Below are positions 21-51,110 of a stretch of 64,000 nucleotides of DNA, piece after piece (within the stretch, counting starts at the first letter, position 1; each line of letters opens with the position of its first letter). The position numbers and the translations under genes were made by a program. The stretch covers positions 225 through 64,224 of the forward strand of contig JAKAKZ010000004.1 in assembly GCA_021824285.1 (NCBI GenBank). Direction: 5' to 3'. The notes beneath the pieces are model-generated. The model was not told the origin of the DNA, did no database searches, and saw nothing but the letters and a program-made list of their open reading frames with translations. The stretch is from a bacterium. GTDB taxonomy: Bacteria; Patescibacteriota; Patescibacteriia; SG8-24.

Positions 21-1070
21 ATGGGCATGGTTACGCAAAAAACCCGCGGCGAGCTGATCCGGAATCTGTTTCCAGAGCTACCCGACTACCGCTTCCGCCA
101 GACGGAAGAGGCGGTTTTTCATGCCGGCTGGAAATCCTGGAACGACGTCTCGAACCTGCCGGGTGAGGCCCGCGCCAAATTGGCGGCCGAAGTCCCCTGG
201 ACGTCCTGGACCGCCGCGGACCTGCACCGCAGCGCGGCCGGCGACACCTTCAAGACCATCCTGGGACTGCCGGACGGCAACCGCATCGAAACCGTGCTCA
301 TGAAGAACAGCCGCGGCCAATGGACGGTCTGCGTCTCCTCGCAGGTCGGCTGCGCCATGAAGTGCGCCTTCTGCGCCACCGGTACCATGGGGCTGCTCCG
401 CAACCTCACGTCCGACGAAATCGTCGACCAGGTCCGCTACTGGCTGGATTTCGTCGCCTCACCGGAAGGGCCGGGCAGCCGCATCAGCAACATCGTTTTC
501 ATGGGCATGGGCGAGCCGCTGGCCAACTACGAGAACGTGAAGGAGTCCATCCGAACCGTCCTGAAGCGCACCGACATCGGCCTCACCCGCATTACCGTCT
601 CGACTTCCGGCATGCTGCCGCAACTCGAAGCGTTGCTCCTGGACCAGGACTGGCCGGACGTGCGTCTGGCCGTCTCGCTCCACAGCGCGGACGCCAAGAC
701 CCGCGCACAGATCATGCCGAGCTCGTATGAAGGGTTCTTGGAGCGGCTGAAGAACTGGGCGCTGAAGTACCTGGCCGCGAAAGGCGGCGGGCGGCGGCAC
801 CTCACCTTCGAACACATCATGCTCGGCAACGTGAACGACTCGCCGGAGCACGCGGCGAAACTCGCTGATTTCGCCAAGTCCATCGGCGACGTGCGCGTGA
901 ACCTCATCCCCTACAACCGCACGGACGCCGGTTTCGCGGTCACGCCGGACGCGCGCATCCGCGCTTTCATGGACGTGCTGGAACGGAACGGCATCACGGT
1001 CACGCGCCGCAAGAGCCAGGGCGACGACATCGCCGCGGCCTGCGGTCAGCTGGTCGTCCGAAAAAGTTGA
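21..1070 (+). CDS. rlmN: 23S rRNA (adenine2503-C2)-methyltransferase RlmN, radical SAM
   Basis: 349 aa with the CxxxCxxC cluster (CAMKCAFC) and GMGEP motif typical of RlmN/Cfr. Ends in TGA. Confidence 0.9.
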   Translation: MGMVTQKTRGELIRNLFPELPDYRFRQTEEAVFHAGWKSWNDVSNLPGEARAKLAAEVPWTSWTAADLHRSAAGDTFKTILGLPDGNRIETVLMKNSRGQWTVCVSSQVGCAMKCAFCATGTMGLLRNLTSDEIVDQVRYWLDFVASPEGPGSRISNIVFMGMGEPLANYENVKESIRTVLKRTDIGLTRITVSTSGMLPQLEALLLDQDWPDVRLAVSLHSADAKTRAQIMPSSYEGFLERLKNWALKYLAAKGGGRRHLTFEHIMLGNVNDSPEHAAKLADFAKSIGDVRVNLIPYNRTDAGFAVTPDARIRAFMDVLERNGITVTRRKSQGDDIAAACGQLVVRKS

Positions 1071-9488: not shown

Positions 9489-9677
9489 AATTCCATATTA
9501 GCATAAGGTTTGGAGTCTTGGAGGTGTGGAGAAAGAAAGTGGCGGAGAGAGAAAGAGAAAAAGTGACAAAGTACGGCCTTTTTCACGGCACTCAAAGATC
9601 AAAAATCGCGCCTTATCAGCGCGATTTTTACATTCACTTTCACTCTCCATCTCTCCTTCTCTCATTCTCTATAATCC

Positions 9678-16040: not shown

Positions 16041-16151
16041 GTGTGAAGGGTGAAGTTGGGAGTGTGGAGTTAATGTAAAAATCGCGCTGCGGCGCGATTT
16101 TAATCTTGAATAACGCGACTCCATACTCCACACTCCCCGCTCCACACTACC
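16041..16151. repeat. dispersed GT-rich / CA-rich long inverted-repeat element (family B), with a central bidirectional terminator palindrome
   Basis: Left arm gtgaagggtgaagttgggagtgtggag, right arm gactccatactccacactccccgctccacac. Core aaatcgcgc-tgc-ggcgcgattt at about 16078-16100. It lies between convergent genes. Confidence 0.55.
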
Positions 16152-24225: not shown

Positions 24226-24366
24226 AGTTGAGAGTTCGAAGTTGATAGTTGAAAGTTCCGAATCGCAGATGACTTTCAACTTTTCCCGCCTCTTTAGGCG
24301 GGACCCCGCCTTCTTTGACTAAAGATAGGGGGCGGGGCAACTACGAACTTTCAACTGCCCGACGGC
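24226..24366. repeat. composite dispersed repeat: AT-rich IR flanks plus a two-hairpin CCCCGCC core (family A)
   Basis: gttgagagtt..gttgatagttgaaagtt / actttcaact around the core tcccgcc-tcttta-ggcggga ccccgcc-(loop)-ggcgggg at 24284-24347. Near-identical to the 25833-25975 copy. Confidence 0.6.
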
Positions 24367-25832: not shown

Positions 25833-25975
25833 GTTGAAAGTTGAGTGTTGGAAGTTGAGAGTTCCGGTCGATTGTTGAAAACAATAAACTTTTCACTTTT
25901 CCCGCCATTTGGGCGGGACCCCGCCTTCTTTAACTAAAGATAAGTGGCGGGGCAACCCTCAACTCTCAACTTCCC
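25833..25975. repeat. composite dispersed repeat (family A) immediately upstream of pheS
   Basis: gttgaaagttgagtgttggaagttgagagtt ... tcccgcc-atttg-ggcggga ccccgcc-ttctttaactaaagataagtg-gcgggg ... caaccctcaactctcaacttcc. Confidence 0.6.
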
Positions 25976-27045: not shown

Positions 27046-27827
27046 CCGAGTCTGACGGTTTCGAGTTCAACCGGCCGGCCGAGCCAGTCGGAAGCGATGC
27101 GCGCGAACTGGTCCGTGCGGTCGCTGACCGTATAGCTGTCCGAACCGACGCGGTCGAGGGACTTGGCCAATTCCGGATTGACGGCCAGATGGCGCTTGAG
27201 TGCGGCCACGGTTTCCCGGGCCGGATCGATTAGCCGCACTCCCTTGCCCACCGCCGCGGCGATGACCGGGCGCAGGAAAGGATAGTGCGTGCAGCCCAAA
27301 ATCAGGGTATCAATGCGGCGTAATTTTAGCTGATTAAGGTAAGTTCTGGCAACTTCCCGGACCGCCTTGGAGCGGTGCCAGCCCTCCTCCACGAATGGCA
27401 CGAAAAGCGGACACGGCTCGGCGAAGACTTCCGCCTCCGGTGCCTCGATCTCCAGGTGGTGCTGGTAAGTCCCAGAACCGACCGTAGCGCGCGTACCGAT
27501 CAGGCCGATGCGGCCCTTCGTGACCTTGACCGCCGCGGCCACGGCCGGCGAAATCACCTCCCAAACCGGCACCGGGAGCTCGGCCCGCAGCGTGCCCATG
27601 GCAACCGCGGAAGCCGTATTGCAGGCCACGACGATGATCTGCGCCCCGCGGGAGACCAAAAACCGCGCGTCCTCCAAGGCGTACTGGCTGATGAGCTCTT
27701 TGCTTTTGCCGCCATAGGGCGTACGGGCCGTATCGCCGAAATAGGCGATGCGGTAACCGGGCATCTGGCGATGCAGTTCTTTGACGACCGTCAGTCCGCC
27801 GAGTCCGGAATCGAAGACGCCGATCAT
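27042..27827 (-). CDS. murI: glutamate racemase
   Basis: MIGVFDSGLGGLTV... is the hallmark N-terminus. The track ORF extends to 27908 only by translating the family-B repeat. Confidence 0.85.
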   Translation of the reverse strand: MIGVFDSGLGGLTVVKELHRQMPGYRIAYFGDTARTPYGGKSKELISQYALEDARFLVSRGAQIIVVACNTASAVAMGTLRAELPVPVWEVISPAVAAAVKVTKGRIGLIGTRATVGSGTYQHHLEIEAPEAEVFAEPCPLFVPFVEEGWHRSKAVREVARTYLNQLKLRRIDTLILGCTHYPFLRPVIAAAVGKGVRLIDPARETVAALKRHLAVNPELAKSLDRVGSDSYTVSDRTDQFARIASDWLGRPVELETVRLG

Positions 27828-27830
27828 GGT

Positions 27831-27913
27831 GGTGGAGGTTTGGAGGTGTGGAGGTTTGGAGGTGTGGAGTATTGCTTTCTCCAAACCTCCAAGACTCCAA
27901 ACCTCCAAACCTC
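27831..27913. repeat. long imperfect hairpin of the GT-rich / CA-rich dispersed repeat (family B)
   Basis: ggaggtttggaggtgtggaggtttggaggtgtggag - tattgcttt - ctccaaacctccaagactccaaacctccaaacctc. It fills the gap between the phosphohexomutase stop and the murI start. Confidence 0.6.
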
Positions 27914-30429: not shown

Positions 30430-30506
30430 CGTGAAGGGTGGAGCGTGAAGGGTGAAGCTTGATGAATTTTCAACTCCACACTCCCAACTCCACACTCCAC
30501 ACTCCC
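30430..30506. repeat. family-B GT-rich / CA-rich repeat between lemA and htpX
   Basis: gtgaagggtggagcgtgaagggtgaag ... ctccacactcccaactccacactccacactccc. Confidence 0.55.
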
Positions 30507-39465: not shown

Positions 39466-41541
39466 TCATTCCAGATGGACCTTGTTCAGTGCGTTAGAGG
39501 ATAGTACCGCTTCCGCCGTCTTCTCCTGCTCACCTCCCAACATAGCCACGGCGGCCTTCACTTCCTGGATGAGCCGGGCATCACCGAGCGAGGCCACCCG
39601 GAATCCCGGAAACCCGGATTGCAGCTCGCCCAAAAGTTCGCCGGGGCCGCGCATGGCCAAATCCTTTTCTGCGAGATCAAAACCGTCCTGCAGCTCGACC
39701 ATGGCGCGCAGCCGTTCCTTTTCCGCCGCTTCGTCGGTGGACGGCAGCAGCAGGCAGTAGGACTGGTGCTCGCTGCGGCCCACGCGGCCGCGGAACTGGT
39801 GCAGCTGGGCCAGTCCGAAGCGCTCGGCTCCGGAGATGCACATCACAGTGGCGTTCGGCACGTCGATTCCGACCTCCACCACCGAAGTGGACACGAGAGC
39901 CATGATCTTCCTTTCCAGAAAATCGCGCATCACGGCCTCCTTCTCCGCCGCCGCCAGGCGGCCATGCAGCAGACCGACCCCAATGCCGGGCAGCTCCACC
40001 TTGGACAGCCGATCGAATTCCTCTTCCGCGGACACCGTCTCCACCGCCTCCGACTCCTCGATGAGCGGACAGACCACGAAGGCCTGCCGACCAGCGGCTA
40101 TCTGTTCCCGGATGAAATCATAGGCGTCGGTGCGGCGGCTGGCCGGCACGAGCCGCGTCAGGATCGGTTTACGGTCCTTGGGTTTCTGCCGGAGCAGGGA
40201 AAGGTCCAAATCGCCGAGGACCGTGAGCGCCAGTGAGCGCGGGATGGGCGTCGCGGTCATGGACAGCAGGTGCGGCTCCACGCCTGGTTCCGCGCCCTTC
40301 TCGCAGAGCAATTGCCGGGCCCGGACGCCGAAGCGGTGCTGCTCGTCCACGACCGCCAGCGCCAGACGGCGGAACCCGACGGCTTCCTCAATAAGCGCGT
40401 GGGTCCCAACCACGACCGGCACGCGGCCGGCCGCGATATCGTCCGCCAGTCGCGCGGCCTCGGCCTTGTTGGCGCAGGCGAGCTCCTTGCCGTCCGCGAA
40501 GCAGCGGCGATAGGCGTTGGTCCAAAGCGCCACGGAAACCGGCTGGCCGGCGAAGACCTTCTTGAGCGACTCGTAATGCTGCTTGGCCAGGATTTCGGTC
40601 GGGGCCATAAGCGCGCTCTGGCAGCCCGAAGCGGCCGCGTTAATCATGGCGATGGCCGCGACCACGGTCTTGCCACTGCCCACATCGCCGTCGAGCAGGC
40701 GGTTCATGGGTGCGGCCTTAGCCATGTCGAGCAGCGCCTCCCAAGCGGCGCGCCGCTGGTCGTCCGTGAGGCGGAACGGTAGTGCGGCCACAAGACGCCG
40801 GGTGACGGCCTCGTCGAACCGTACCGGAATCCCCTTTTTACCCTGCCGCAGTCGGCGCAACTCGGCCATGGACAGCTCCAGACGGAACAGCTCGTCGAAA
40901 CCGAGACGGCGGCGGGCCGCATCGCGTCCGTCATGTGTCGCCGGAAAATGTGCCTCACGCACCGCCTCCGCCAGGCTGACCAGGCCGAAACGCCGCCGGA
41001 CCTGCCCAGGCAGCGTCTCCTCCAACTCTGCGGCAAGCGGTTCGGCCGTGCGCACCAGGCGGCGCATCAGCGCCTGGCTGATGCCCTTAGGCAAGGAATA
41101 GACCGGGAGGAGCGGCGACAGGTAGCCGCGTTCGCTTGTCGTCGGCTCATGCAGCGGACTGATAAGCCGGAGCCCGAATTTAGAGGCAGTCACCTTGCCG
41201 GCCAACCTATAGGTCGAGCCGACGGTGAGCGACTTCTGCAGATACGGCTGGTTGAACCAGAGTGCCGTCAGTTTCCCGCTGTCGTCCTTGAGGACGGCCT
41301 CCGTGAGCGACATGCGCCGGCCCCAGGCCCGGCGGCTGCGGACCTTCTCCACTTCGGCGATGACCGTAACCTGCTCCCCCGCTCGCGCGTCGGCCAACTT
41401 CACGCAGCGGCTGAAATCCTCATAGCGGAACGGGAAATGGAAAAGCAGATCGCGCACGGTGCGGATTTCGATGGAGTTCAGGGCGGAAATGGCGCTGCGG
41501 CTTTTCGGGCTCAAGACCGAGACCGGGCTGGAGAGGTCCAT
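39466..41541 (-). CDS. recG: ATP-dependent DNA helicase RecG
   Basis: 691 aa with wedge domain, DVGSGKT Walker A, DEQHRFGV and helicase C motifs. Confidence 0.9.
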   Translation of the reverse strand: MDLSSPVSVLSPKSRSAISALNSIEIRTVRDLLFHFPFRYEDFSRCVKLADARAGEQVTVIAEVEKVRSRRAWGRRMSLTEAVLKDDSGKLTALWFNQPYLQKSLTVGSTYRLAGKVTASKFGLRLISPLHEPTTSERGYLSPLLPVYSLPKGISQALMRRLVRTAEPLAAELEETLPGQVRRRFGLVSLAEAVREAHFPATHDGRDAARRRLGFDELFRLELSMAELRRLRQGKKGIPVRFDEAVTRRLVAALPFRLTDDQRRAAWEALLDMAKAAPMNRLLDGDVGSGKTVVAAIAMINAAASGCQSALMAPTEILAKQHYESLKKVFAGQPVSVALWTNAYRRCFADGKELACANKAEAARLADDIAAGRVPVVVGTHALIEEAVGFRRLALAVVDEQHRFGVRARQLLCEKGAEPGVEPHLLSMTATPIPRSLALTVLGDLDLSLLRQKPKDRKPILTRLVPASRRTDAYDFIREQIAAGRQAFVVCPLIEESEAVETVSAEEEFDRLSKVELPGIGVGLLHGRLAAAEKEAVMRDFLERKIMALVSTSVVEVGIDVPNATVMCISGAERFGLAQLHQFRGRVGRSEHQSYCLLLPSTDEAAEKERLRAMVELQDGFDLAEKDLAMRGPGELLGELQSGFPGFRVASLGDARLIQEVKAAVAMLGGEQEKTAEAVLSSNALNKVHLE

Positions 41542-41559
41542 ATGCGCCTATATCGTATC

Positions 41560-41571
41560 GGGGACTGTCCC
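41560..41571. promoter_or_regulatory. GGGGACTGTCCC palindrome about 20 bp upstream of the recG start. The same 12-mer occurs twice at 54541-54578.
   Basis: Perfect dyad GGGAC-T-GTCCC, candidate operator. Confidence 0.35.
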
Positions 41572-41625
41572 ATTTAGGCAAAAATCAATCAAACGAAAAA
41601 CACCGGTGTTCCCGGTGTTTTCCGA

Positions 41626-41724
41626 TGGTGCGCCCGGCACGATTCCCCCGCCACCCATCTTTAGTCAAAGAAGGCGGGGTCCCGCCAACGGCGGGAGAAC
41701 GTGCGACCTCATCCTCCGCAGGGG
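41626..41724 (-). pseudogene. duplicated 3' fragment of tRNA-Arg (anticodon arm to CCA) with a family-A element inserted in the T-loop
   Basis: Matches tRNA-Arg positions about 29-76 plus 45 nt of downstream flank including the terminator. The T-loop attc|gaa is split by the 52-nt ccccgcc...ggcggga element at 41646-41697. Confidence 0.5.
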
Positions 41725-41912
41725 TCAGGCGCGAGACACGCAGCGCCTGGCGGGCGGCAAAAGCCGCCCGGGCTTGTCGGTTCTGTTTTTTGACCGAGCC
41801 GAAGGCGAGAAATACGCGCACGGCCTGACCAATATGACACATCGGCTGGTGGGACGGCTCCAGGCGCATCCCTGCGAAAACAGAAAACACCGGTGTTCCC
41901 GGTGTCCTCCGA

Positions 41913-41990
41913 TGGTGCGCCCGGCACGATTCGAACGTGCGACCTCATCCTCCGCAGGGATGCGCTCTATCCAAACTGAGCTACGGGCGC
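41913..41990 (-). tRNA. tRNA-Arg (anticodon read as GCG)
   Basis: Cloverleaf: acceptor GCGCCCG/CGGGCGC, D-arm GCTC-AGTTTGGATA-GAGC, anticodon stem CATCC/GGATG with loop CTGCGGA, T-arm GCACG-TTCGAAT-CGTGC, encoded CCA. A terminator hairpin follows. Confidence 0.7.
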
Positions 41991-42124
41991 GGCTTATTTT
42001 CTGCTTCCAAAGAAGGGGCTAACCGGCTCGGCGGCGACTTCCCCGCCCCAAGACTGACGCCGAATACGATAACACAACTCCCCAATTTTGGGAAGGGGCT
42101 TACCGTCCGACCGGTAGACTAACT

Positions 42125-42646
42125 CTAGAGCTTAAGGAAACGCCCGATGAAATCGCTGGCCGTTGGCTGAGTATTGATGCGGTCCTCCTTCAAAAACCTA
42201 CCCAGGATAGGCCGAATCTCCTCCGGCAGGACATCCGACAGGTCGATGCCGACCTCGCCCTTGAACAGGTCGCGGGTGCGCAAATAGACGCTCTGAACCA
42301 CGGGCGGCTCATAGACTACACGGAAACTTTCAATGGAAGAAAAGGGCAGGAACTCGCGGCCGATCTGTATTCCGCGTTCCGTAATGGCCATCCGCAGGAC
42401 ACGCGGTTCAGCGGCCGCGTTCAGGTAAATGACCAGGGCGAACAGCAGGATAAGCAGGGCGAACAGGAAGTTCGCAGTCGCGACGGCGTAGATGAGCAGG
42501 GCGATGCCCAAACCGGCGGAAATGCCGTACCAAAGCAGGCCGCGCTCATAGTGCGGCCGTTCCGAAAACTCCCAGGCGATCAGCACCTGCGGCTCCATAA
42601 GCTCGGCTACCTCTGTGGTCGCTTGGTCCTGAACTTGGTCGGTCAT
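42125..42646 (-). CDS. membrane protein with bacterial PH (YdbS/YdbT-like) domain
   Basis: 173 aa with a two-TM hairpin, then a beta-rich region (FRVVYEPPVVQSVYLRTRD...). Confidence 0.55.
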   Translation of the reverse strand: MTDQVQDQATTEVAELMEPQVLIAWEFSERPHYERGLLWYGISAGLGIALLIYAVATANFLFALLILLFALVIYLNAAAEPRVLRMAITERGIQIGREFLPFSSIESFRVVYEPPVVQSVYLRTRDLFKGEVGIDLSDVLPEEIRPILGRFLKEDRINTQPTASDFIGRFLKL

Positions 42647-42760
42647 AAGCTTATTTAGGCTAACGCCTACCTCTTATTTATAGCGTATTCCGGTCATCTT
42701 GACAAAAGGCCCTAAATGGGCTAAGCTACGCAGTTCTTTAAACATGGAAAGGAGAACGGC

Positions 42761-43600
42761 GTGTTCGCGAACGAGTTTGGTATCCTGCCGCAGCTGTCTG
42801 ACCAAGAGGAACCGATTCCCCTCCCCGGAGGGGTGGCCGACGAGAAACTGCTCGGCACCATCAACCACGTCCTGCGCCAGCACGGGCTCGACTCCTGGAC
42901 GGCGATCCAGTTGGGCCGGCCCGACCGGTGCGAGGTCATCGACCTGAACGGCTACGCGACGCTCAACCCGGGCCGCGTCCGACTCAACCTGAAGATCAAG
43001 GACGGCGACCAGACCTACGATACGCACCTCAACGTCGGCGGCCGGTTCGCCTTCGTCATCCCGATCGTGACCCTCACGGAGCGGGACGCGAGCATCCGCC
43101 CGGAAGACGAGGGGCTGCATCTGCTGACTCGCTCGCGTCTCGAGGGGCGCCAGGAGGAGGCCGGCTGGCTGAAGACGTTCGGACCCGAAGAGGCCGCCAC
43201 CATCCGGCAGTTCCACCTGCTGGGAACTTCCTGGGAGGCGCCGCGCAAGCTGCTCATGGAGTTCGACGAGAACCGCGAACTGGATCCGTTCGCCGGACCG
43301 GCCCGCGAGGTGCTGCAGAGCGCCTTCGGCGACGACTACGTGGCGGCTTTGGACCAGGCGTCAGTGATGCCGCTCGGCGCGCTGCGCATCAAGGGCGAGT
43401 TCGCCTTGGCCCGCGCCTACTTCTTCCGCGCCTGCATCTACGGCAAGCTCAGCTGGAACGACCTGCGAGGCCGCGTGATCCGCATTCCGCTCAAGAAGGT
43501 CAGGCCGGCGCTCAATCGGCTGGCTGGCCTCGCGGACACCGAGACCTTCGCCGTGCTGTCCTCCGCCATCCTCAAGGCACCGGCCGGAACCTTCGGCTAA
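42761..43600 (+). CDS. hypothetical protein
   Basis: 279 aa with a GTG start after AAGGAG and a TTGACA-17-TAAGCT promoter-like sequence upstream. No family recognised. Confidence 0.55.
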   Translation: MFANEFGILPQLSDQEEPIPLPGGVADEKLLGTINHVLRQHGLDSWTAIQLGRPDRCEVIDLNGYATLNPGRVRLNLKIKDGDQTYDTHLNVGGRFAFVIPIVTLTERDASIRPEDEGLHLLTRSRLEGRQEEAGWLKTFGPEEAATIRQFHLLGTSWEAPRKLLMEFDENRELDPFAGPAREVLQSAFGDDYVAALDQASVMPLGALRIKGEFALARAYFFRACIYGKLSWNDLRGRVIRIPLKKVRPALNRLAGLADTETFAVLSSAILKAPAGTFG

Positions 43601-43826
43601 ACAGCCGCTTTTGACCCCCTTTCGGGGGTCTTTTTTATAGATTAGGCCTTCACAAAGGGCGTCAGATGTATTAGGATACCGCTTGCCGAATGGAGGGTTG
43701 CGCCGAATGGGTCGCCGTGAGACATCGAACGGCGACGGGCGGCAAAAGACGCCCTGGCTTCCCGGCTCATTTTTTTGACCGAGGCGGAGCCGAGACCTAT
43801 AGGTTCTTTTGACCAAACTAACGCAT

Positions 43827-43915
43827 GGAGGGTTGCGCCGAATGGTAAGGCAACAGTTTGCTAAACTGTGACCTCGAAAGGGGTCTTATAGGTTCGATTC
43901 CTATACCCTCCGCCA
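43827..43915 (+). tRNA. tRNA-Ser (anticodon GCT), class II with long variable arm
   Basis: Acceptor GGAGGGT/ACCCTCC, anticodon stem ACAGT/ACTGT with loop TTGCTAA, variable arm GACCTCGAAAGGGGTC, T-arm ATAGG-TTCGATT-CCTAT, encoded CCA. The D-arm is slightly irregular in my hand fold. Confidence 0.7.
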
Positions 43916-43920
43916 CGCAA

Positions 43921-43950
43921 AAACCGGAGCCTTCTGGCCCCGGTTTTTGC
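43921..43950 (+). terminator. terminator-like hairpin after tRNA-Ser
   Basis: aaaaaccggagcc-ttct-ggccccggttttt. Confidence 0.45.
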
Positions 43951-44049
43951 GTTGTCAGACTGGCTCACGTTCCAGCTAACCCGCCTGATTTTCGGATCAT
44001 GACTACTCCCCTGTCCGCCCACTCGGCCACCCATGTTTACTTTTAAAGC

Positions 44050-44148
44050 GGAGGGGGTGAGATTCCCCCGCCACCCATCTCTAGTCAGAGAAGGCGGGGT
44101 CCCGCCCCAAAGGCGGGAGAACTCACGGACCCTTGCGGGTCAACAGTT
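44050..44148 (-). pseudogene. duplicated 3' fragment of tRNA-Ser(TGA) with a family-A element inserted in the T-loop
   Basis: gagattc|[ccccgcc...ggcggga at 44066-44120]|gaactcacggacccttgcgggtcaacagtt. The insertion point in the T-loop is the same as in the tRNA-Arg fragment. Confidence 0.5.
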
Positions 44149-44164
44149 TGGCCGCCTGACGACT

Positions 44165-44230
44165 TTCCGGCGGAGGGGGTGAGATTTGAACTCACGGTGC
44201 CTTTCGGCACGGCAGTTTTCAAGACTGCTG
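44165..44230 (-). pseudogene. second tRNA-Ser-like 3' fragment (anticodon arm, variable arm, T-arm, acceptor 3' strand), sequence-variant paralog
   Basis: Reverse complement reads GCAGT-CTTGAAA-ACTGC CGTGCCGAAAGGCACC GTGAG-TTCAAAT-CTCAC CCCCTCC. No matching 5' acceptor strand upstream. Confidence 0.45.
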
Positions 44231-44349
44231 CCTTGTTCGGCTCGACAATAATCTGAAGGTCTCGCCGAACACCAGGGCAGCCAATGCTGCCCGCAGACGC
44301 TGCGTCAACTCGCGTCCGCCCACTCGGCCACCCATGTTTACTTTTAAAG

Positions 44350-44434
44350 CGGAGGGGGTGAGATTCGAACTCACGGACCCTTGCGGGTCAACAGTTTTCA
44401 AGACTGTCCTCTTAAACCGCTCGAGCACCCCTCC
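44350..44434 (-). tRNA. tRNA-Ser (anticodon TGA), class II
   Basis: GGAGGGG-TG-CTC-GAGCGGTTTAA-GAG-G-ACAGT-CTTGAAA-ACTGT-TGACCCGCAAGGGTCC-GTGAG-TTCGAAT-CTCAC-CCCCTCC-G. CCA is not encoded. Confidence 0.75.
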
Positions 44435-44489
44435 ACCCTAAAAATAAACTCCGCGGCTATCCTATTATATATGAAGGGGTTTGTTAAGC

Positions 44490-45245
44490 CTATCGGCCTA
44501 AACCTGGGCCGCCGCGCAAGACGGCCAAGGCGTACACTTGGCGCGCTCCTGCGGTTTTAAGCGCTGCGGCGCAGTCGTTCAAGGTAGCCCCGGAAGTTAG
44601 GACGTCGTCCACCAACAGGCAGGATGGGGGGACGCTCTGGCCAAGCCGCGCGGCAAAACTGCCGGCCCGCAGGCGGCGGCGATCAGCTTCGGGCGTGGCG
44701 GCCTGCCGCCGCAAAGAGAAGCGGCGGCGCAGCAATCCCACCTCGCATTCGGTGCCGAAATGCTCTGCAAAGGCGCGGGCCAGAACCGCCGCCTGATTGA
44801 AGCCGCGCAGGGCCAGGCGATACGGATGGAGCGGCACCGGCACGGCGACCGCCAGGGGCGCCAGTCCACGCCAGAACGGCGATGAATCCCAAGCTGCGCG
44901 GCAGAGGCCAAGAAGGGCACGGCCTTCCGCGAGGCCACCCTCGTACTTCCAGCGGCGCAGCAGCGTGCCCAGCGCCGGTTCCGCGTACGAACCAAGATAC
45001 ACGGCCCCATCGAGCGGCGACTTTCCGCACAAGCGCCGACCGCAGCGGCCGAGCAGCGCCGTATGCCGACCGCAGCCGGGACAAACAAAAACGGCCGCCA
45101 GGCGGCCGCTGATCTTGGCTCGACACCCGTCGCACATGACCGGCCCTTCGGAACCGCAACCGGAACAGCGGTCAGGAAAGACCGCCGCGAGTACCGTCCT
45201 CAATAATTCCTTTTCTCTCCCCAATCCACGGAATCCGTCTTCCAT
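44490..45245 (-). CDS. comF: ComF-family protein (competence, phosphoribosyltransferase domain)
   Basis: N-terminal Cys4 zinc finger (CSGCG...CDGC...CPGCG) and the PRTase motif LLVDDVLTSGATL. Confidence 0.8.
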   Translation of the reverse strand: MEDGFRGLGREKELLRTVLAAVFPDRCSGCGSEGPVMCDGCRAKISGRLAAVFVCPGCGRHTALLGRCGRRLCGKSPLDGAVYLGSYAEPALGTLLRRWKYEGGLAEGRALLGLCRAAWDSSPFWRGLAPLAVAVPVPLHPYRLALRGFNQAAVLARAFAEHFGTECEVGLLRRRFSLRRQAATPEADRRRLRAGSFAARLGQSVPPSCLLVDDVLTSGATLNDCAAALKTAGARQVYALAVLRGGPGLGR

Positions 45246-45847
45246 ACGCCATCGGCTAACTTCATGACAAGTGCGGCATCCTGATAAAACAGCGAGGCAG
45301 TGCCGTCGGCCAGCGATTCGCGGCGCTGTGTCGTGACTGTGGCCTTGGCGATACCTCCGTCCTTATCGAACAGCTGAAACTGGACCGACAGGGCCCTGGT
45401 CGTGACGCCGTAGAATTCGGCGTTGACCGCCGACCGCTCCTTCTGCGCCGCCACGTAGGCGTCAGTCTTGGAAGCCAGTCCGGAAGTCATAAGCGGCTTC
45501 AGGTCGAGCAGGTTGGAGTAATCAGCAGTGTTCGAGAAACTGCCGTAACGTTCGACGAAAGCCATGGCCAGACGGCGGGCATCGGCCCGCTCGTCCACCG
45601 TAACGGCCGGCTGGGCCGGCTGCGGTTGGGGCTGCGGCTTGGGGGCAGGCGTGATATCCGTGACCGTGCCGCCGGCCGCGCCCCCGCTCGACGGCAAAGC
45701 CGCCGTACCGCCCTGTTCGGACGGTGCCGGCACGTTGACCGTTTCCGGAGCCTGTTGGGTCTGCCGCAAAAGCAGCAGCGCCAAAGCCGCCAGCAGCAGC
45801 AGGACGACGACGGCAATCCCGATTTTCTGACCGCGACTTAATGCCAT
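45200..45847 (-). CDS. membrane-anchored protein with PQPQPQP linker, possible VirB8/TcpC-like NTF2-fold periplasmic domain
   Basis: 215 aa with N-terminal TM (IGIAVVVLLLLAALALLLL). The VirB8-like assignment comes from position and topology only. It overlaps comF by 46 nt. Confidence 0.45.
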   Translation of the reverse strand: MALSRGQKIGIAVVVLLLLAALALLLLRQTQQAPETVNVPAPSEQGGTAALPSSGGAAGGTVTDITPAPKPQPQPQPAQPAVTVDERADARRLAMAFVERYGSFSNTADYSNLLDLKPLMTSGLASKTDAYVAAQKERSAVNAEFYGVTTRALSVQFQLFDKDGGIAKATVTTQRRESLADGTASLFYQDAALVMKLADGVWKTDSVDWGEKRNY

Positions 45848-45901
45848 ATGCGTACGCTCCGCCGCTTCTTACATCCGCTGCCGGTCGGCGTCAAATCAAG
45901 C

Positions 45902-47797
45902 TCAGGTCTTCATTTCCTTGGCCCGTTGGGCGGCCTCAAACTCCTTCTTGGCCTGCTCGATTTCCAGTAGCTGCTGCGGGTTCGTGGTGACGACCTGGTC
46001 CTCGGCATAGGAGGCCACGACCTTGATGGCCGCGTGCTTCATGCCGGCGAAGAATATGCCCTCGCCCACCCCGCCCTCAAGCAACAGGTATTTCTCCCCC
46101 TCGGTCAGCATGAAGGTCTTGGCGATGTTGTCGATAGCCGCCGGCGACTGCTTCAGAAGCAGCTGCATGGCGGAGTTGGTCACGATGGCCTGGCCGTAAG
46201 GCGAGCGCAGGAAGTCGTTGACGTCCTGGGTGATGGTCGTCACGCCGAGATAGTATTTGCGGCAGCGCTTCACGAGCGCGAAGATAAACTTGGCGGAGTC
46301 CTCGTGCTGCATGAGCCACCAGGCCTCATCAATCACCAGGATGCGTTTCTTGCGCTCGGAGCGGACCACGTTCCAGATGTAGTTGACGATGGCGTAGACC
46401 GCGAGCGGGCGCAGCTCGTCCTCCAGGTCACGGACCGAGAAGACGACGAGGAGGTTCTGCATGGCCACGGTGGTCGGCGAGTTGAACAGGCCGGAGAACG
46501 TGCCCTCGGTGAACTTCTTGAGCTTGATGACGATGTCCTTCGTGCCTTCCATTCCCTCCAGAACCTCAATGAAGTCCTGCATGATCGGCGGCTCGACGCG
46601 GGCCAGGTCGGCGTCCGGCGTGATGTCCTTCTTGGCGTAGGTTTCGAGCAGGGCGCGGTCCAGCACGGAGTCCTCTTGCGGCGTGATCGTGCCGAGCATG
46701 ATGCGCAGCAGGCCCTTTACCGTGATGACCGCGCTGCGGATGATATCCTCGACCGAAACCTCCTCCCCCACCGGCCGCGGCAGGTCGAACGGGTTGATCT
46801 TGGCGTCGGAGGCCAACGAGATGTTGATGTAGGTCCCGCCGACCGCGTCGGACAGGTGTTTGTATTCCATTTCCGGGTCGATGACGATGACCTCGGTGCC
46901 CATCATGAGCGAGCGCAGGATCTCCAGCTTCACGGTGTAGGATTTGCCCGCGCCGGAAGTGGCGAACACGATATAATTCGCGTTCTGCATGGAGAACCGG
47001 TCGAACAGGATCAGACTGTTGTTGTGGCGGTTGATGCCGAAAAGGATGCCGTTGTCCGAGGTCAGGTCCGCCGAGATGAACGGAAACGAGGAGGCGCACG
47101 GCGACGAGTTCATGTTGTAGGTGATCATGAGCTCGTCGTTGCCGAGCGGAATCGTGGAATTGAATCCCTGCTCCGCGGTGTAGAAAACGCGCTTGGTGTA
47201 GATCAGCTTGCCGCCGAAAATGGACTCAACGTCCTCGCTCAGCTTGTCGAGGGCCTTCTTGTCCTTGGCGTAGACCGTGACGTAGAGGGCAAACTGGAAG
47301 AAGTGCTCCGTGCCCTGGGTCAGGCTGTCGCGGAGGTCCTCGACGTCGCGCAGGGCCTGCTCGGAAATCGGGTCGCGCGGCTTGCCCTTCTCGGCATCTG
47401 AAAGGATGGTCGCCTCGAGCACGCCGGCTTTCTTCTTGAGCTGTTTCAGGATGACGGGCGCCTTCACCGGATAGAAGAACATGGCCACGTCCAGCGGGTA
47501 GTTCATGTTAATCACCGGCGAGAACCAGCCCAGCGAGATGTAGCGGGGATATGTGACCACGAAGATGGTGCGCAGGAAGGTCTCGCCGAGCTGGACGAGC
47601 GTCGGGTCGACTTTCATGCCCGCCGGCGCGATGAGGTCACGAATGGAGACGACGCCCTTGCGGTAGACGCGCTCCTCCTCCAGGAGCTCGCGCTCGCGCG
47701 AGATCTTTTCGGTCTCCTGCCGCTTCTTCACCTCTGCCGCCGTGTCCTTCTTCGGAGGCGGCGCGACAGCTCCTAATTGTGCGGGATTGAAGGCCAT
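45902..47797 (-). CDS. virB4: VirB4/TrbE-family T4SS ATPase, C-terminal 631 aa (Gram-positive PrgJ/TcpF type)
   Basis: Walker A FATSGAGKSYTV, Walker B RILVIDEAWWLM, and the conserved GETFLRTIFVVTYPRYI block. Confidence 0.85.
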   Translation of the reverse strand: MAFNPAQLGAVAPPPKKDTAAEVKKRQETEKISRERELLEEERVYRKGVVSIRDLIAPAGMKVDPTLVQLGETFLRTIFVVTYPRYISLGWFSPVINMNYPLDVAMFFYPVKAPVILKQLKKKAGVLEATILSDAEKGKPRDPISEQALRDVEDLRDSLTQGTEHFFQFALYVTVYAKDKKALDKLSEDVESIFGGKLIYTKRVFYTAEQGFNSTIPLGNDELMITYNMNSSPCASSFPFISADLTSDNGILFGINRHNNSLILFDRFSMQNANYIVFATSGAGKSYTVKLEILRSLMMGTEVIVIDPEMEYKHLSDAVGGTYINISLASDAKINPFDLPRPVGEEVSVEDIIRSAVITVKGLLRIMLGTITPQEDSVLDRALLETYAKKDITPDADLARVEPPIMQDFIEVLEGMEGTKDIVIKLKKFTEGTFSGLFNSPTTVAMQNLLVVFSVRDLEDELRPLAVYAIVNYIWNVVRSERKKRILVIDEAWWLMQHEDSAKFIFALVKRCRKYYLGVTTITQDVNDFLRSPYGQAIVTNSAMQLLLKQSPAAIDNIAKTFMLTEGEKYLLLEGGVGEGIFFAGMKHAAIKVVASYAEDQVVTTNPQQLLEIEQAKKEFEAAQRAKEMKT

Positions 47798-49052: not shown

Positions 49053-51110
49053 TCAGCCGAAACGGAGCGTCCGATTCAGGGTCATGATGGCATCGAACTG
49101 CGGTTTGCTGAGGTTGGGCTGCTTGGCGGCCTCGCGCGCGGCAATCACATCCAGCACCGGCTTGCCCTCGAGACTGGCGCGAAGCAGCTCCAGATACAGA
49201 CGGTTGACTTCGGACTCGTGCCAGGCCTTTATCCCCTGCTGTTTTACCTCAAAGCCCTGATCCTCGAGCAAGTCGATCTTATCCTTGATCTTGAGCGTGG
49301 CCTCCGTCGGTTCCTTGGAGAGCCGGATGAAGTCCGCAAGCGTCATGGAGCGAAGTTCCTCGACCGGACCGGTGAGGCGCGGGGCCGCGATGATGTCGGC
49401 AACTATCGGTTTCTGCGTGGCGACTGGCTGGACCGGCGGTGCGGGCGGGCGCTGGGGCACGGAAACATAGCCCGGACCAGAAACGTGGGGCGCGGACGGT
49501 CCGCTCGTCGGCAGGTTCATCGGCGGCGCGGCCGTGGCGGTCGGCGGTTGCGGCGGTTCCGGCCTGGGGGCGGACGGCGGAGCCGGCTTGGCCGGCGGCG
49601 CTGGCGGCACAGCTGGCTTTGGCGCCGGCGGCGGCGTCAGAGGTGCGCTCGGCGGAACTGGAGGCTTCGGGGCCGCGGGGGCGGCGGTCGGAGCCGATTG
49701 GCCCACGGACGGTTGCTTCATGGCCGGGCCGGTGAGGTCCGGCAAGACCGGCTCTGGTTTCGGCGGCGGTGCGGCCGGGACGGCAGGACGCGGCGGAGCT
49801 GCCGCAGCGACAGCGGCTGACGGAGCTGCGGGCCTGGGGGCCGCGACAACCGGTACGGTGACCGGTGCGGAGGGAGCTTTCGGTGCCGGAGTCGGTGCGC
49901 TCCCCGGCGGCATCTGGATACCGGAACGCTGGACCAGATCCTGGTAGCGACGGTCTAGATCCTGCTTCTCCAGACGCTCGGTGCGCTCCTGCTGGAGCAG
50001 ATGGCGGCGCGCCTGTTCGGCTACGAATTTCTCCTTGTCCGCCGCGACCTGGCCGACGGCCTGCGACAGGAACTGCTGGCGCAGCGGCTTAAGCGCGGTC
50101 ATGACGCGGTCGGCGTCTGCCTCGGATAGGCCCAAGCCGCCAGTGGCGACCTGCGAAGTAAGTTTGGATTTCGTCTCCAGCGCGTCGCGCAGGTCGCGCA
50201 GATAAAGCGCGGATGCCATGCGAAAACGGTTGAGCGACTCTGGCGTCGGGCTTGGCAAGGCGGCCGCCTGCACGGCCCGTTCGACGAAGAAATCGAGGTC
50301 GCCGGCCGGCTCGGCGGCAGGCTCCATCGTCCTGCGCAAGGCCTCAACCTCCTTGATGTCCTCGACCTGGACTGTTTCGAAGGTGGGGACAGTGGGGAGG
50401 TTTGGAGGTTTGGAGGTTTGGAGGTTTGGAGTGGCCGTCGGCGCTTCCGCAATCGGAGGGATGACGACGGGTTTCGGTTTTTCGGCGGCCAGCACCTCAT
50501 CGGGAACGACGACGATCGCCCTCGCCTCAAGCGCCTTCATCTCCTCTTCCGCAGCCGCGACAACAAGCGCGGCCTCATCGCCGTTCAAACCAACGCCCGA
50601 CGTCTTCGCCGGACCCATGAGCGTCTCCGCCAGCTGTTCCACCTTGCGGCCGCCGAGGGCCACGGAGGCCAGAACCTTATCAAGGCGGCGGTCCAGGATG
50701 TCGTCGGAAACGACCACGCCGGACTTGCGGCGGATGACCGCGACGACGTCCGATGCCGCGACCTTCTTTTTGAAGATGTTAGGGTCGCCGCCTTCCTGCA
50801 GGATGAGAGCGGGGATGTCGGAATTCAGCCAATCCGCGATGTCCTGAAAATCATAGCCGAGTATCTTTTGGGCCACGTCAGGATAGCGGCCGTTCCCCTT
50901 GAGCAGGTCGCGCAGGAAGGCGAGGAAGGAGGACGGGGTAGTGACGCGGAAATAAACGTCAAACAGGGCCTCGGCGACGGCGAAGCGCTGACCCTCGTCG
51001 ATCAGCGGGAAAATTTCCTCGGCGTACCGCTCAGCCAACTGGGCGTCGAAAATGTGCGCCCGAACCTGGTCGGGCAGGCCACGGAGCTGTTCAAGTGAGT
51101 ATTTCGGCAT
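49053..51110 (-). CDS. hypothetical 685-aa protein with central Pro/Ala-rich low-complexity region
   Basis: No TM. Globular N- and C-terminal regions. It contains an in-frame copy of the family-B repeat encoding PNLQTSKPPNLP. Confidence 0.6.
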   Translation of the reverse strand: MPKYSLEQLRGLPDQVRAHIFDAQLAERYAEEIFPLIDEGQRFAVAEALFDVYFRVTTPSSFLAFLRDLLKGNGRYPDVAQKILGYDFQDIADWLNSDIPALILQEGGDPNIFKKKVAASDVVAVIRRKSGVVVSDDILDRRLDKVLASVALGGRKVEQLAETLMGPAKTSGVGLNGDEAALVVAAAEEEMKALEARAIVVVPDEVLAAEKPKPVVIPPIAEAPTATPNLQTSKPPNLPTVPTFETVQVEDIKEVEALRRTMEPAAEPAGDLDFFVERAVQAAALPSPTPESLNRFRMASALYLRDLRDALETKSKLTSQVATGGLGLSEADADRVMTALKPLRQQFLSQAVGQVAADKEKFVAEQARRHLLQQERTERLEKQDLDRRYQDLVQRSGIQMPPGSAPTPAPKAPSAPVTVPVVAAPRPAAPSAAVAAAAPPRPAVPAAPPPKPEPVLPDLTGPAMKQPSVGQSAPTAAPAAPKPPVPPSAPLTPPPAPKPAVPPAPPAKPAPPSAPRPEPPQPPTATAAPPMNLPTSGPSAPHVSGPGYVSVPQRPPAPPVQPVATQKPIVADIIAAPRLTGPVEELRSMTLADFIRLSKEPTEATLKIKDKIDLLEDQGFEVKQQGIKAWHESEVNRLYLELLRASLEGKPVLDVIAAREAAKQPNLSKPQFDAIMTLNRTLRFG
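50394..50423. repeat. family-B repeat unit (ggaggtttggag x3) embedded in frame inside the CDS
   Basis: Same unit as the intergenic 27831-27913 element. Confidence 0.5.

Follow-up and report, generated by a model that had tools for sequence, protein, structure and literature searches.

Hairpin mini-elements in split tRNA gene copies of a Patescibacteria lineage: two candidate families of tRNA-loop-targeting mobile DNA

Introduction

Compact genomes contain short non-coding hairpin repeats that insert into genes, such as Rickettsia palindromic elements, repetitive extragenic palindromes and bacterial interspersed mosaic elements (REP/BIME), Correia elements, and MITEs (miniature transposable elements with inverted repeats). 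Patescibacteria have very small, streamlined genomes, in which mobile elements are thought to be scarce and tRNA genes are usually single-copy and essential. Elsewhere, tRNA genes are targeted by genomic islands and prophages and by non-autonomous cis-mobilizable elements (CIMEs) (PMC5704250; PMC6323972). Insertion sequences of the IS91 family insert at GTTC or CTTG targets without target duplication, carry subterminal palindromes, and often mobilize adjacent DNA by one-ended transposition (PMC13181058). Structural RNA genes may also be interrupted or rearranged, as by tRNA introns and in the split and permuted tRNAs of archaea and algae (PMC3218864), or by the rRNA-gene insertions of bacteria of the candidate phyla radiation (CPR; PMC11270868). 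In eukaryotes, transposons of the Dada superfamily, which are protein-coding and have terminal repeats and target duplications, insert into multicopy small-RNA genes (tRNA, snRNA; PMC3706591). Here, two families of short hairpin elements, termed M and A, are described in split copies of tRNA genes within a 64,000-nucleotide stretch of a Patescibacteria genome (GenBank assembly GCA_021824285.1, contig JAKAKZ010000004.1, positions 225 to 64,224), hereafter the window.

Three tRNA genes were called by ARAGORN in the window: tRNA-Arg(GCG), tRNA-Ser(GCT), and tRNA-Ser(TGA). All three are affected by the same split-copy architecture, in which an intact, uninterrupted gene is always adjacent to the interrupted copies. 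An earlier inspection of the letters alone (the original prediction) had reported, at the serine pair, two intact genes with stacked fragments and long direct repeats, and had proposed a classical integration hotspot. With a probability of about 0.6, we read M and A as non-autonomous mobile DNA of one Patescibacteria sub-lineage that targets tRNA loops and is moved in trans, A having entered spare T-loops later. M and A would thus be two previously undescribed families of hairpin mini-elements, tRNA-targeting and target-regenerating mobile DNA being a kind already known. A search of the literature on tRNA-associated mini-elements in CPR bacteria returned no matching description.

Results

M, a three-hairpin element

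M is a non-coding sequence of about 92 nt made of three consecutive, independent hairpins, without terminal inverted repeats. At least 15 distinct copies are present in the DNA examined. The ten copies from which a covariance model (R1) was built are 38-76% identical, and 93% of their stem cells are paired, versus 32-49% with slid partners. Changes on both sides were observed in 14 of the 18 pairs, a figure reached in none of 500 shuffles and compared with 1-6 in the slid controls. The covariation score is 0.53, versus 0.20 in shuffles and 0.06-0.12 with slid partners. This is the conserved structure by which a structured RNA family is recognized, and DNA hairpins fit the data equally well. 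G-U pairs are scarce (5 of 168 paired cells), and M lies on the same strand as the tRNA at Ser and Glu loci and on the opposite one at the Arg loci of four species; on these two grounds, hairpins at the DNA level probably fit better than RNA ones. When folded as DNA, the copies of M and A in the window have z-scores of -4.4 to -5.5.

Searching the window with R1 gave only three strong matches, all at tRNA loci, and five were obtained in the 21-kb syntenic locus of the relative L090, again all at tRNA loci. No match was found in 935 kb of recG loci from other CPR and Chloroflexota genomes, a control set that came from a recG scan of species-representative genomes and in which relatives are at most 49% identical. 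A pattern scan of metagenomes returned 32 matches, with 27 by chance, and revealed an M copy that splits a 5' copy of tRNA-Glu(TTC) in L117, where an intact gene follows. Further copies, at L098 8964-9053, L106 1559-1783, and L114 1417-1506, lie beside or inside CCCCGC-N4-GCGGGG hairpins. L106 carries two such units of M and CCCCGC hairpin in tandem.

The left end of M is always directly 3' of GG or GGG. In the tRNA genes for Ser(GCT), Glu, and both types of Ser(TGA), this junction is the D-loop GG (G18-G19); in the Arg genes of four species, it is CGCAG(GG), in the antisense anticodon loop. L090 has further junctions in the acceptor stem and the variable arm, and a junction beside a small GC hairpin is found elsewhere. 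Two to four nucleotides are replaced upon insertion, without short target duplication. The right end of the M-bearing units is variable, and flanking repeats range from 18 to 84 nt. Two subfamilies, 'T' and 'C', are distinguished; the tail of the 'T' type contains TTGACC-N17-TAnnnn. M was also considered as a MITE and rejected: it is small, non-coding, and multi-copy, but has neither terminal inverted repeats nor a target duplication of fixed length.

Of four loci examined, Ser(GCT), Ser(TGA), and Arg have M within a repeat-body-repeat arrangement in which 21-84 nt of the tRNA gene are duplicated. As the tRNA segment is duplicated around the body, one intact gene is kept and a displaced fragment is left behind. 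The tRNA-Glu locus, with its M-split 5' copy upstream of an intact gene, would fit the same scheme. Some copies of M sit in a tRNA D-loop or variable arm without repeats resembling attachment (att) sites.

A, a two-hairpin element

A, the family-A element of the original prediction, is 51-55 nt long and forms two hairpins, TCCCGCC..GGCGGGA and CCCCGCC..GGCGGGG, with one compensatory change in the inner stem (TCTTT/AAAGA to TCTCT/AGAGA). Eight full-length copies were found, representing seven distinct sequences. Five are located in T-loops, between GTTC and GAATC and always in one orientation: at the Ser and Arg loci of the window, in Ser of L090 and of its duplicate L128, and in Arg of L093. 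Each half of the A insert (34 and 26 nt) is present in two copies in the window; the expectation from 100 shuffles is 0.00.

The remaining three copies are outside tRNA genes, at CAACTT(T)/CAAC sites upstream of protein genes (the slash marks the junction). Comparison of A copies placed two of them on the plus strand of the window, at 24284-24337 upstream of the pheT start (flanks ...CAACTTT/A/CAAC...) and at 25900-25952 upstream of the pheS start (...CACTTT/A/CAAC...). Each of these two copies lies between inverted runs of the AGTTGAAAGTT / AACTTTCAACT type, which puts A once more at the centre of a larger palindrome.

A was tried as an intrinsic terminator and rejected, as no T-run follows the hairpins on either strand. 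An exact-pattern scan for A in species-representative genomes and JGI metagenomes found none, the pattern being too specific to this species, and viral contigs scanned with the M and A patterns contained none. A clear species-specificity of the T-loop copies, which would make them independent insertions, is weakly supported since identities of 74-91% overlap within and between genomes, and the idea was dropped.

The serine tRNA locus

Both intact serine genes reported in the original prediction are called by ARAGORN and Rfam. tRNA-Ser(GCT) is on the plus strand at 43827-43915 (Rfam tRNA, 53.8 bits), with an inverted repeat forming a terminator hairpin at 43915-43952. tRNA-Ser(TGA), hereafter copy 1, is on the minus strand at 44349-44434 (55.9 bits); a sequence pattern, TTAACA-N17-TAGGAT, marks its putative promoter at 44487-44459. 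Every fragment and repeat that had been listed is present in the window.

On the plus strand, the order is a promoter-like site, a displaced 5' fragment, a 90-nt element, a 9-nt T-arm piece, a short spacer, and the intact gene. The promoter-like site, TTCACA-N17-TAGGAT at 43649-43677, is probably the ancestral tRNA-Ser(GCT) promoter, as the same site is found directly upstream of the intact gene in L130 and L131. The displaced fragment is the left repeat copy; it occupies 43687-43710, runs from 5 nt upstream of the gene to G19 of the D-loop, and ends in GAATGG, where M starts. The reported 21-nt repeat, ATGGAGGGTTGCGCCGAATGG, does occur at 43690-43710 and 43825-43845, and can be lengthened to 24 nt with one mismatch (96%; 43687-43710 versus 43822-43845). 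M, here of the 'T' subfamily, occupies 43711-43800 (R1 73 bits, E=7e-15; DNA fold z = -5.4), shows its three hairpins with TTGACC-N17-TATAGG in the tail, and is 70-71% identical to the copies at the tRNA-Arg of the window and at the tRNA-Ser(GCT) of L090. The 9-nt piece TATAGGTTC at 43798-43806 corresponds to the T-stem and T-loop of Ser(GCT) up to TTC, and recurs at 43887-43895 within the intact gene. Because the promoter precedes the displaced fragment in the window, the insert appears to have entered the D-loop of a once-continuous gene and to have brought a new copy of the first 19 nt.

On the minus strand, copy 1 is followed by a 15-nt spacer, pseudo-copy 2, a 20-nt linker, and pseudo-copy 3. 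The order ends with a repetition of the spacer and of the beginning of pseudo-copy 2, which extends 6 nt into the M of that copy. The spacer (44334-44348), delimited by repeat comparison, leads to the 5' part of pseudo-copy 2, GGGTGGCCGAGTGG at 44320-44333, which has lost its first four acceptor bases (ACAT for GGAG). An M of the 'C' subfamily at 44235-44319 (R1 91.8 bits, E=3e-19; DNA fold z = -4.8) is inserted in the D-loop after GAGTGG, and no tRNA is called after its deletion. The 3' part, from the 3' strand of the D-stem to the 3' end, lies at 44170-44234, as determined by repeat comparison and Rfam. It is the third, divergent Ser-like fragment of the original prediction: the segment 44170-44245 is 79% identical to the intact gene and gives a borderline Rfam tRNA match on the minus strand (44179-44242, 29.4 bits, model positions 9-63). 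The fragment is redrawn here as 44170-44234 plus 44320-44333, separated by the 85-nt element. Its two parts are closer to the working tRNA-Ser(TGA) of L131 (59/65 and 13/14 identical nucleotides) than to copy 1 (55/65 and 11/14).

The 20-nt linker, CGGAAAGTCGTCAGGCGGCC at 44150-44169 as read from the sequence, is possibly a remnant of M hairpin 1. Pseudo-copy 3 extends from anticodon position 36 to T-loop position 56 at 44119-44149 (31/31 identical to 44367-44397), and, according to the repeat comparison, from position 57 to the 3' end at 44048-44065. A separates the two parts at 44066-44118 (DNA fold z = -5.5), its 53 nt lying exactly between ...GATTC and GAAC..., at the centre of the T-loop TTCGAA. 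The distal end of the array, at 44013-44047, holds the second copy of the spacer, of the 5' part of pseudo-copy 2, and of the beginning of M. The claimed repeat of the Ser(TGA) 3' end is thus exact over 53 nt (44013-44065 and 44314-44366, 100%) and resumes past A for 31 nt (100%), so that the joined repeat is identical at 84 of 84 positions. The fragments themselves presumably have no tRNA function.

The arginine tRNA locus

The tRNA-Arg gene lies about 2 kb from the serine pair. The intact tRNA-Arg(GCG) is on the minus strand at 41913-41990 (ARAGORN; Rfam tRNA, 66.6 bits), and its terminator is at 41878-41912. Together (41878-41990), they contain the proximal copy of an 82-nt flanking direct repeat that includes the terminator, the two copies being identical at 78 of 82 positions. 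The locus, 41591-41990, begins with the distal copy of the terminator and tRNA-Arg positions 57-76 (minus strand, 41591-41645, from the repeat comparison). These are followed by a 51-nt A inserted at TTC/GAA in the T-loop of the 3'-half pseudo-copy (minus strand, 41646-41696, from repeat and A-copy comparison), and by positions 30-56 (minus strand, 41697-41723, 27/27 identical to 41933-41959). Next comes a 92-nt M of the 'T' subfamily on the strand opposite to tRNA-Arg, at 41724-41815, after ...CGCAGGG in the antisense anticodon loop (R1 68.5 bits; DNA fold z = -4.4). At the far end of the inserted body, sequence comparison reveals an inverted 13-nt piece of tRNA-Arg (positions 24-36; plus strand, 41864-41876), adjoining the terminator of the intact gene.

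Comparison with relatives

Four relatives whose RecG is 57-59% identical to that of the window (L097, L130, L131, L132) share the order ComF, Ser(GCT), Ser(TGA) ... Arg, RecG, and have no M. Three of them (L097, L131, L132) have short spacers and no tRNA fragments. The bare tRNA arrangement without M is likely the ancestral state. TTCACA-N17-TAGGAT directly precedes tRNA-Ser(GCT) in L130 and L131, and the displaced 5' fragment in the window.

In a closer group (RecG 67-68% identical), tRNA-Arg of L095 adjoins a 125-nt M-containing body, beyond which the 3' half and the terminator are repeated as an 83-nt copy without interruption. This repeat-body-repeat arrangement with an intact T-loop indicates that A arrives later, as a secondary insertion. 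L091, from the same group, carries one unit with a shortened A and one M nested in another; the two terminators flanking the unit differ. Two units in tandem are found in L093, which has the same RecG protein as L091. The presence/absence differences for which the original prediction proposed a comparison do exist: M is missing at these sites from four relatives, and one or two units are carried by strains of a single related species. At the Arg site, M is of the 'T' subfamily in the window, but L089, L093, and L095 have the 'C' subfamily there; this site was therefore used more than once.

Related Patescibacteria show the same architecture at their genes for tRNA-Arg, tRNA-Ser(GCT), tRNA-Ser(TGA), and tRNA-Glu. 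In L090 (13783-14180; the same as in L128), a nearly full-length second tRNA-Ser(TGA) holds four inserts. Three are M, placed after acceptor position 6, in the D-loop, and in the variable arm; the fourth, in the T-loop, is A. Across tRNAs and species, the junctions agree to the nucleotide, being TTC/GAA for A (Arg and Ser(TGA), two species) and directly after GG for M. Two species whose M copies share only 70% identity have the 21-nt Ser(GCT) fragment in perfectly conserved form. At 5782-5990 of L130, which is free of M, an unrelated insert of about 140 nt is bracketed by two copies of the tRNA-Ser(GCT) 3' end (from T-loop position 57) and its terminator, so that T-loop insertions that duplicate their target are not limited to M and A.

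Gene order also differs. ComF, Ser(GCT), and Ser(TGA) are on one strand in L097, L130, and L131, whereas in the window Ser(GCT) has the opposite orientation and is found on the far side of Ser(TGA). In L090, a rearrangement around recG involves the entire block. Breakpoints fall at tRNA and M loci, both in L090 and at 43600-45250 of the window as compared with L097, L130, and L131.

Genomic setting

The neighbourhood is ordinary chromosome, encoding RecG, RadA, a ComF-like protein, a secretion cluster of the PrgI/TraC/VirB4 type, ClpB, and PheS/PheT. The best RecG relatives carry the label Patescibacteria. The same structures are found in the NCBI assembly GCA_027346945.1, with at most 4 mismatches over 3400 nt, in contig k141_919611 of ENA ERZ27237563, and in Logan contigs L085 and L086.

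A 279-residue protein is encoded at 42761-43600, between the Arg and Ser loci. It has no Pfam match and a single homologue (48% identity) among 5.8 billion proteins, and is thus a lineage-restricted orphan. In the NCBI metagenome-assembled genome (L082), recG is called as two pieces of 72 and 615 residues; a C-to-A change between the window and L082 at 41493, near the recG 5' end, could reflect either strain variation or an error in sequencing. Periodic arrays (8-nt unit GGAGGTKT or its complement CTCCACAC) occur beside gene starts at 9506-9531, 16097-16137, 27812-27882, 30466-30506, and 50374-50444, and similar arrays flank terminator hairpins in relatives (L089 300-400, L114). They may be leader sequences or part of the repeat system.

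Discussion

The two families can be accommodated in a single scheme. M and A would recognize tRNA-gene loops, probably in the form of folded or palindromic DNA, and would depend for their movement on an enzyme supplied in trans by a gene at another place in the genome. Less certainly, M-bearing units would enter by a route that regenerates the target, for which three variants are conceivable. A small circular or transduced unit carrying a tRNA segment could recombine with the gene in a Campbell-like manner. Alternatively, one-ended or rolling-circle transposition could take flanking tRNA pieces along; here the IS91 family serves as a lead. Lastly, the target might be duplicated transiently in tandem, with survival limited to insertions caught in one of the copies. 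A would then insert into the spare T-loops, and local duplication of 84 nt together with recombination among the repeats would produce the stacked array and the altered gene order. The inverted tRNA piece beyond M at the Arg loci is left unexplained by this scheme.

Several observations weigh against mobile DNA aimed at tRNA loops. No mobilizing enzyme was identified, nor was an excised form or a precise empty allele of the same strain seen in the DNA examined, which amounts to about 170 kb from the M-carrying lineage, as loci rather than whole genomes. Insertion by a transposase would not normally create target repeats of 21-84 nt, and the right end of the M units is variable. The copies of M are old and divergent, and thus give no sign of recent activity in this genome. 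The loci in L098, L106, and L114 contain no recognizable tRNA piece and have no Rfam match. The conserved hairpins could instead reflect a host function, and the perfect conservation of the 21-nt Ser(GCT) fragment would not be predicted by the neutral decay of a footprint.

A bolder version, which we advance tentatively and regard as rather doubtful, is that M, with A as a companion, represents an undescribed class of miniature elements that read tRNA loops as folded DNA, regenerate their target, and are moved by an HUH-type nuclease or a new recombinase. The sites might recall HUH-type insertion, M following GG or GGG, and A following GTTC (five sites) or CTT(T) (three sites); the long target repeats around M are not predicted by HUH chemistry. 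No Y1 or Y2 HUH transposase was seen on the single 68-kb contig of the genome that was reached, on which the coverage of open reading frames (ORFs) is incomplete.

Alternative explanations

The integration hotspot of the original prediction would imply that integrase-bearing islands or prophages repeatedly entered the tRNA genes and left att-type fragments, their interiors being deleted to stubs of 110-165 nt. This is unlikely. A tRNA direct repeat with an intact gene and a presence/absence polymorphism are indeed found. The repeats of 82-84 nt run from the anticodon loop or stem past the tRNA 3' end, as is typical of attL/attR; units have accreted in tandem in L093; the terminators differ in L091 as if one had come in with the element; and pseudo-copy 2 resembles the working gene of relatives while copy 1 belongs to a different type, as a replacement of the gene would produce. 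However, no integrase, transposase, or recombinase was recognized within about 10 kb on either side or in the other ORFs of the window that were scanned, the first 7.4 kb of the window (1-7.4 kb) and small ORFs being outside the scan. The inserted bodies, of 111-164 nt, contain a structured hairpin module and neither an ORF nor an integrase remnant; given their small size and uniformity, with no recombinase gene recognized in the vicinity, they are probably not decayed islands. The same small size and the same module recur at four tRNA identities in at least four species, which is not expected from independent decay. Moreover, 5' halves are duplicated as well as 3' halves (at Ser(GCT), at Glu, and at Arg of L089), and some M lie in the D-loop or variable arm of tRNA copies without att-like repeats. 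Nor is this a single specific site, as all three tRNA genes of the window are affected, and four tRNA identities in relatives. The original prediction is therefore supported in part: stacked partial copies produced by repeated insertion and recombination at tRNA genes are retained, integrase-bearing islands are not.

It is likewise improbable that tRNA genes are not targeted at all. In that case, foreign DNA taken up and anchored through the conserved tRNA sequence (homology-facilitated illegitimate recombination) would, with unequal crossing-over, have made the tandem partial copies, and M and A would be ordinary intergenic repeats persisting where a compact genome has its few dispensable stretches. 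Two sequence types of tRNA-Ser(TGA), one of them ancestral, do lie side by side, gene order is rearranged at tRNA loci, and both elements are also found away from tRNAs. The array is a mosaic, in which the M at Ser(TGA) of the window shares hairpins 2 and 3 with the third M of L090, located at another tRNA position. ComF and genes resembling those of type IV secretion systems or pilins adjoin. However, such a process would account neither for the nucleotide-identical junctions across tRNAs and species, nor for the constant orientation of A in T-loops, nor for the position of all three strong M matches of the 64 kb at tRNA loci. Relatives with the same compact spacers are devoid of M, and three of the four are devoid of fragments.

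A functional RNA is very unlikely. The interrupted copies would then be genuine tRNA genes, whether split, permuted, or carrying an intervening sequence of a new kind, or M would be a structured RNA made from tRNA transcripts, as a leader or trailer or as a mobile promoter cassette. The strong covariation of M is in keeping with this possibility, as are the motif TTGACC-N17-TAnnnn in the tail of the 'T' type, the perfect conservation of the 5' fragment, and the precedent of rRNA-gene insertions in CPR bacteria (PMC11270868). In two species, M is located between the promoter and the intact tRNA-Ser(GCT), where it is probably transcribed as a leader. However, when M was deleted over a grid of boundaries, ARAGORN called no junction-spanning tRNA at any of eight M sites; M are thus not introns. 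Interrupted copies lack acceptor bases or U8, or are mere halves, and an intact gene is adjacent. The Rfam searches (E<=10 for 41000-46000; E<=1 for four related loci) returned only tRNA and chance matches, and no group I intron core, ribozyme, or transfer-messenger RNA (tmRNA), no explicit search for bulge-helix-bulge motifs being made. The antisense position of M at tRNA-Arg in four species and the 5 G-U pairs among 168 also argue against an RNA. A tmRNA was rejected, as ARAGORN found none in the window and Rfam gave no match. One long functional tRNA or tmRNA-like gene, which had been named as the finding that would overturn the original prediction, is thus excluded.

Collapsed or misjoined repeats in the metagenome assembly are a most improbable cause: short contigs of the same population (L085-L088) do end in or beside the repeats, and L090 has a run of N at its Arg locus, but the structure is identical in independent ENA, NCBI, and Logan assemblies, and analogous structures exist in other species and samples.

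Significance and comparison with known systems

If they are mobile, M and A are mobile DNA of unfamiliar design in the streamlined genomes of Patescibacteria. Their targets, the D-loop and T-loop of tRNA genes, are the most conserved DNA in biology; they are entered at fixed nucleotides and a working gene is left. Should the folded-DNA, target-regenerating version be true, these would be the smallest known tRNA-specific integrating elements, equipped with a built-in 'repair patch'. A mobilizing enzyme, if found, would offer a compact system for site-specific insertion. On the practical side, the repeats break metagenome assemblies, several contigs of the population ending there, and the split copies create pseudo-tRNA calls. 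As they coincide with gene-order rearrangements at tRNA loci, M and A matter for the annotation of CPR genomes and for the reading of synteny.

The closest known systems are the tRNA-targeting islands and CIMEs. As with these, entry is inside a tRNA gene that is regenerated, a tRNA direct repeat surrounds the insert, the anticodon loop and T-loop contain the breakpoints, tandem accretion and presence/absence polymorphism are observed, and functions are supplied in trans, which for M and A is probable. Unlike islands and CIMEs, the bodies are only about 110-165 nt and devoid of ORFs, contain a conserved three-hairpin module, duplicate 5' halves, and also exist without att-like repeats.

Elements mobilized by HUH enzymes (the palindrome-associated IS200/IS605 elements and IS91) share with M and A the lack of a short target duplication, insertion 3' of a short motif, and hairpins near the ends. 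A follows GTTC or CTT(T), which recalls the GTTC/CTTG targets of IS91, and one-ended transposition of the IS91 type could explain the variable right ends of M and the captured pieces of tRNA. However, compared by sequence alone, the ends of M and A match neither those of IS91 nor those of IS608, the target of M is GG, and the long target repeats are unexplained.

Rickettsia palindromic elements, REP/BIME, Correia elements, and MITEs resemble M and A in being short, non-coding, hairpin-forming, multi-copy, nested, and tolerated in structured genes or their remnants. M differs in having neither terminal inverted repeats nor a fixed target duplication, in being tied to tRNA loops, and in that its stems covary instead of keeping their sequence.

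The interruption of a structural RNA gene in the D-loop, variable arm, and T-loop is reminiscent of tRNA introns and of the rRNA-gene insertions for which the phylum is known. In contrast to tRNA introns, removal restores no tRNA, there is no group I core, and an intact, uninterrupted gene is always present. Finally, like the Dada transposons, M and A are inserted site-specifically in tRNA genes and tolerated through the remaining copies; unlike Dada, they are non-coding and bacterial, and the spare copy adjoins the insertion itself.

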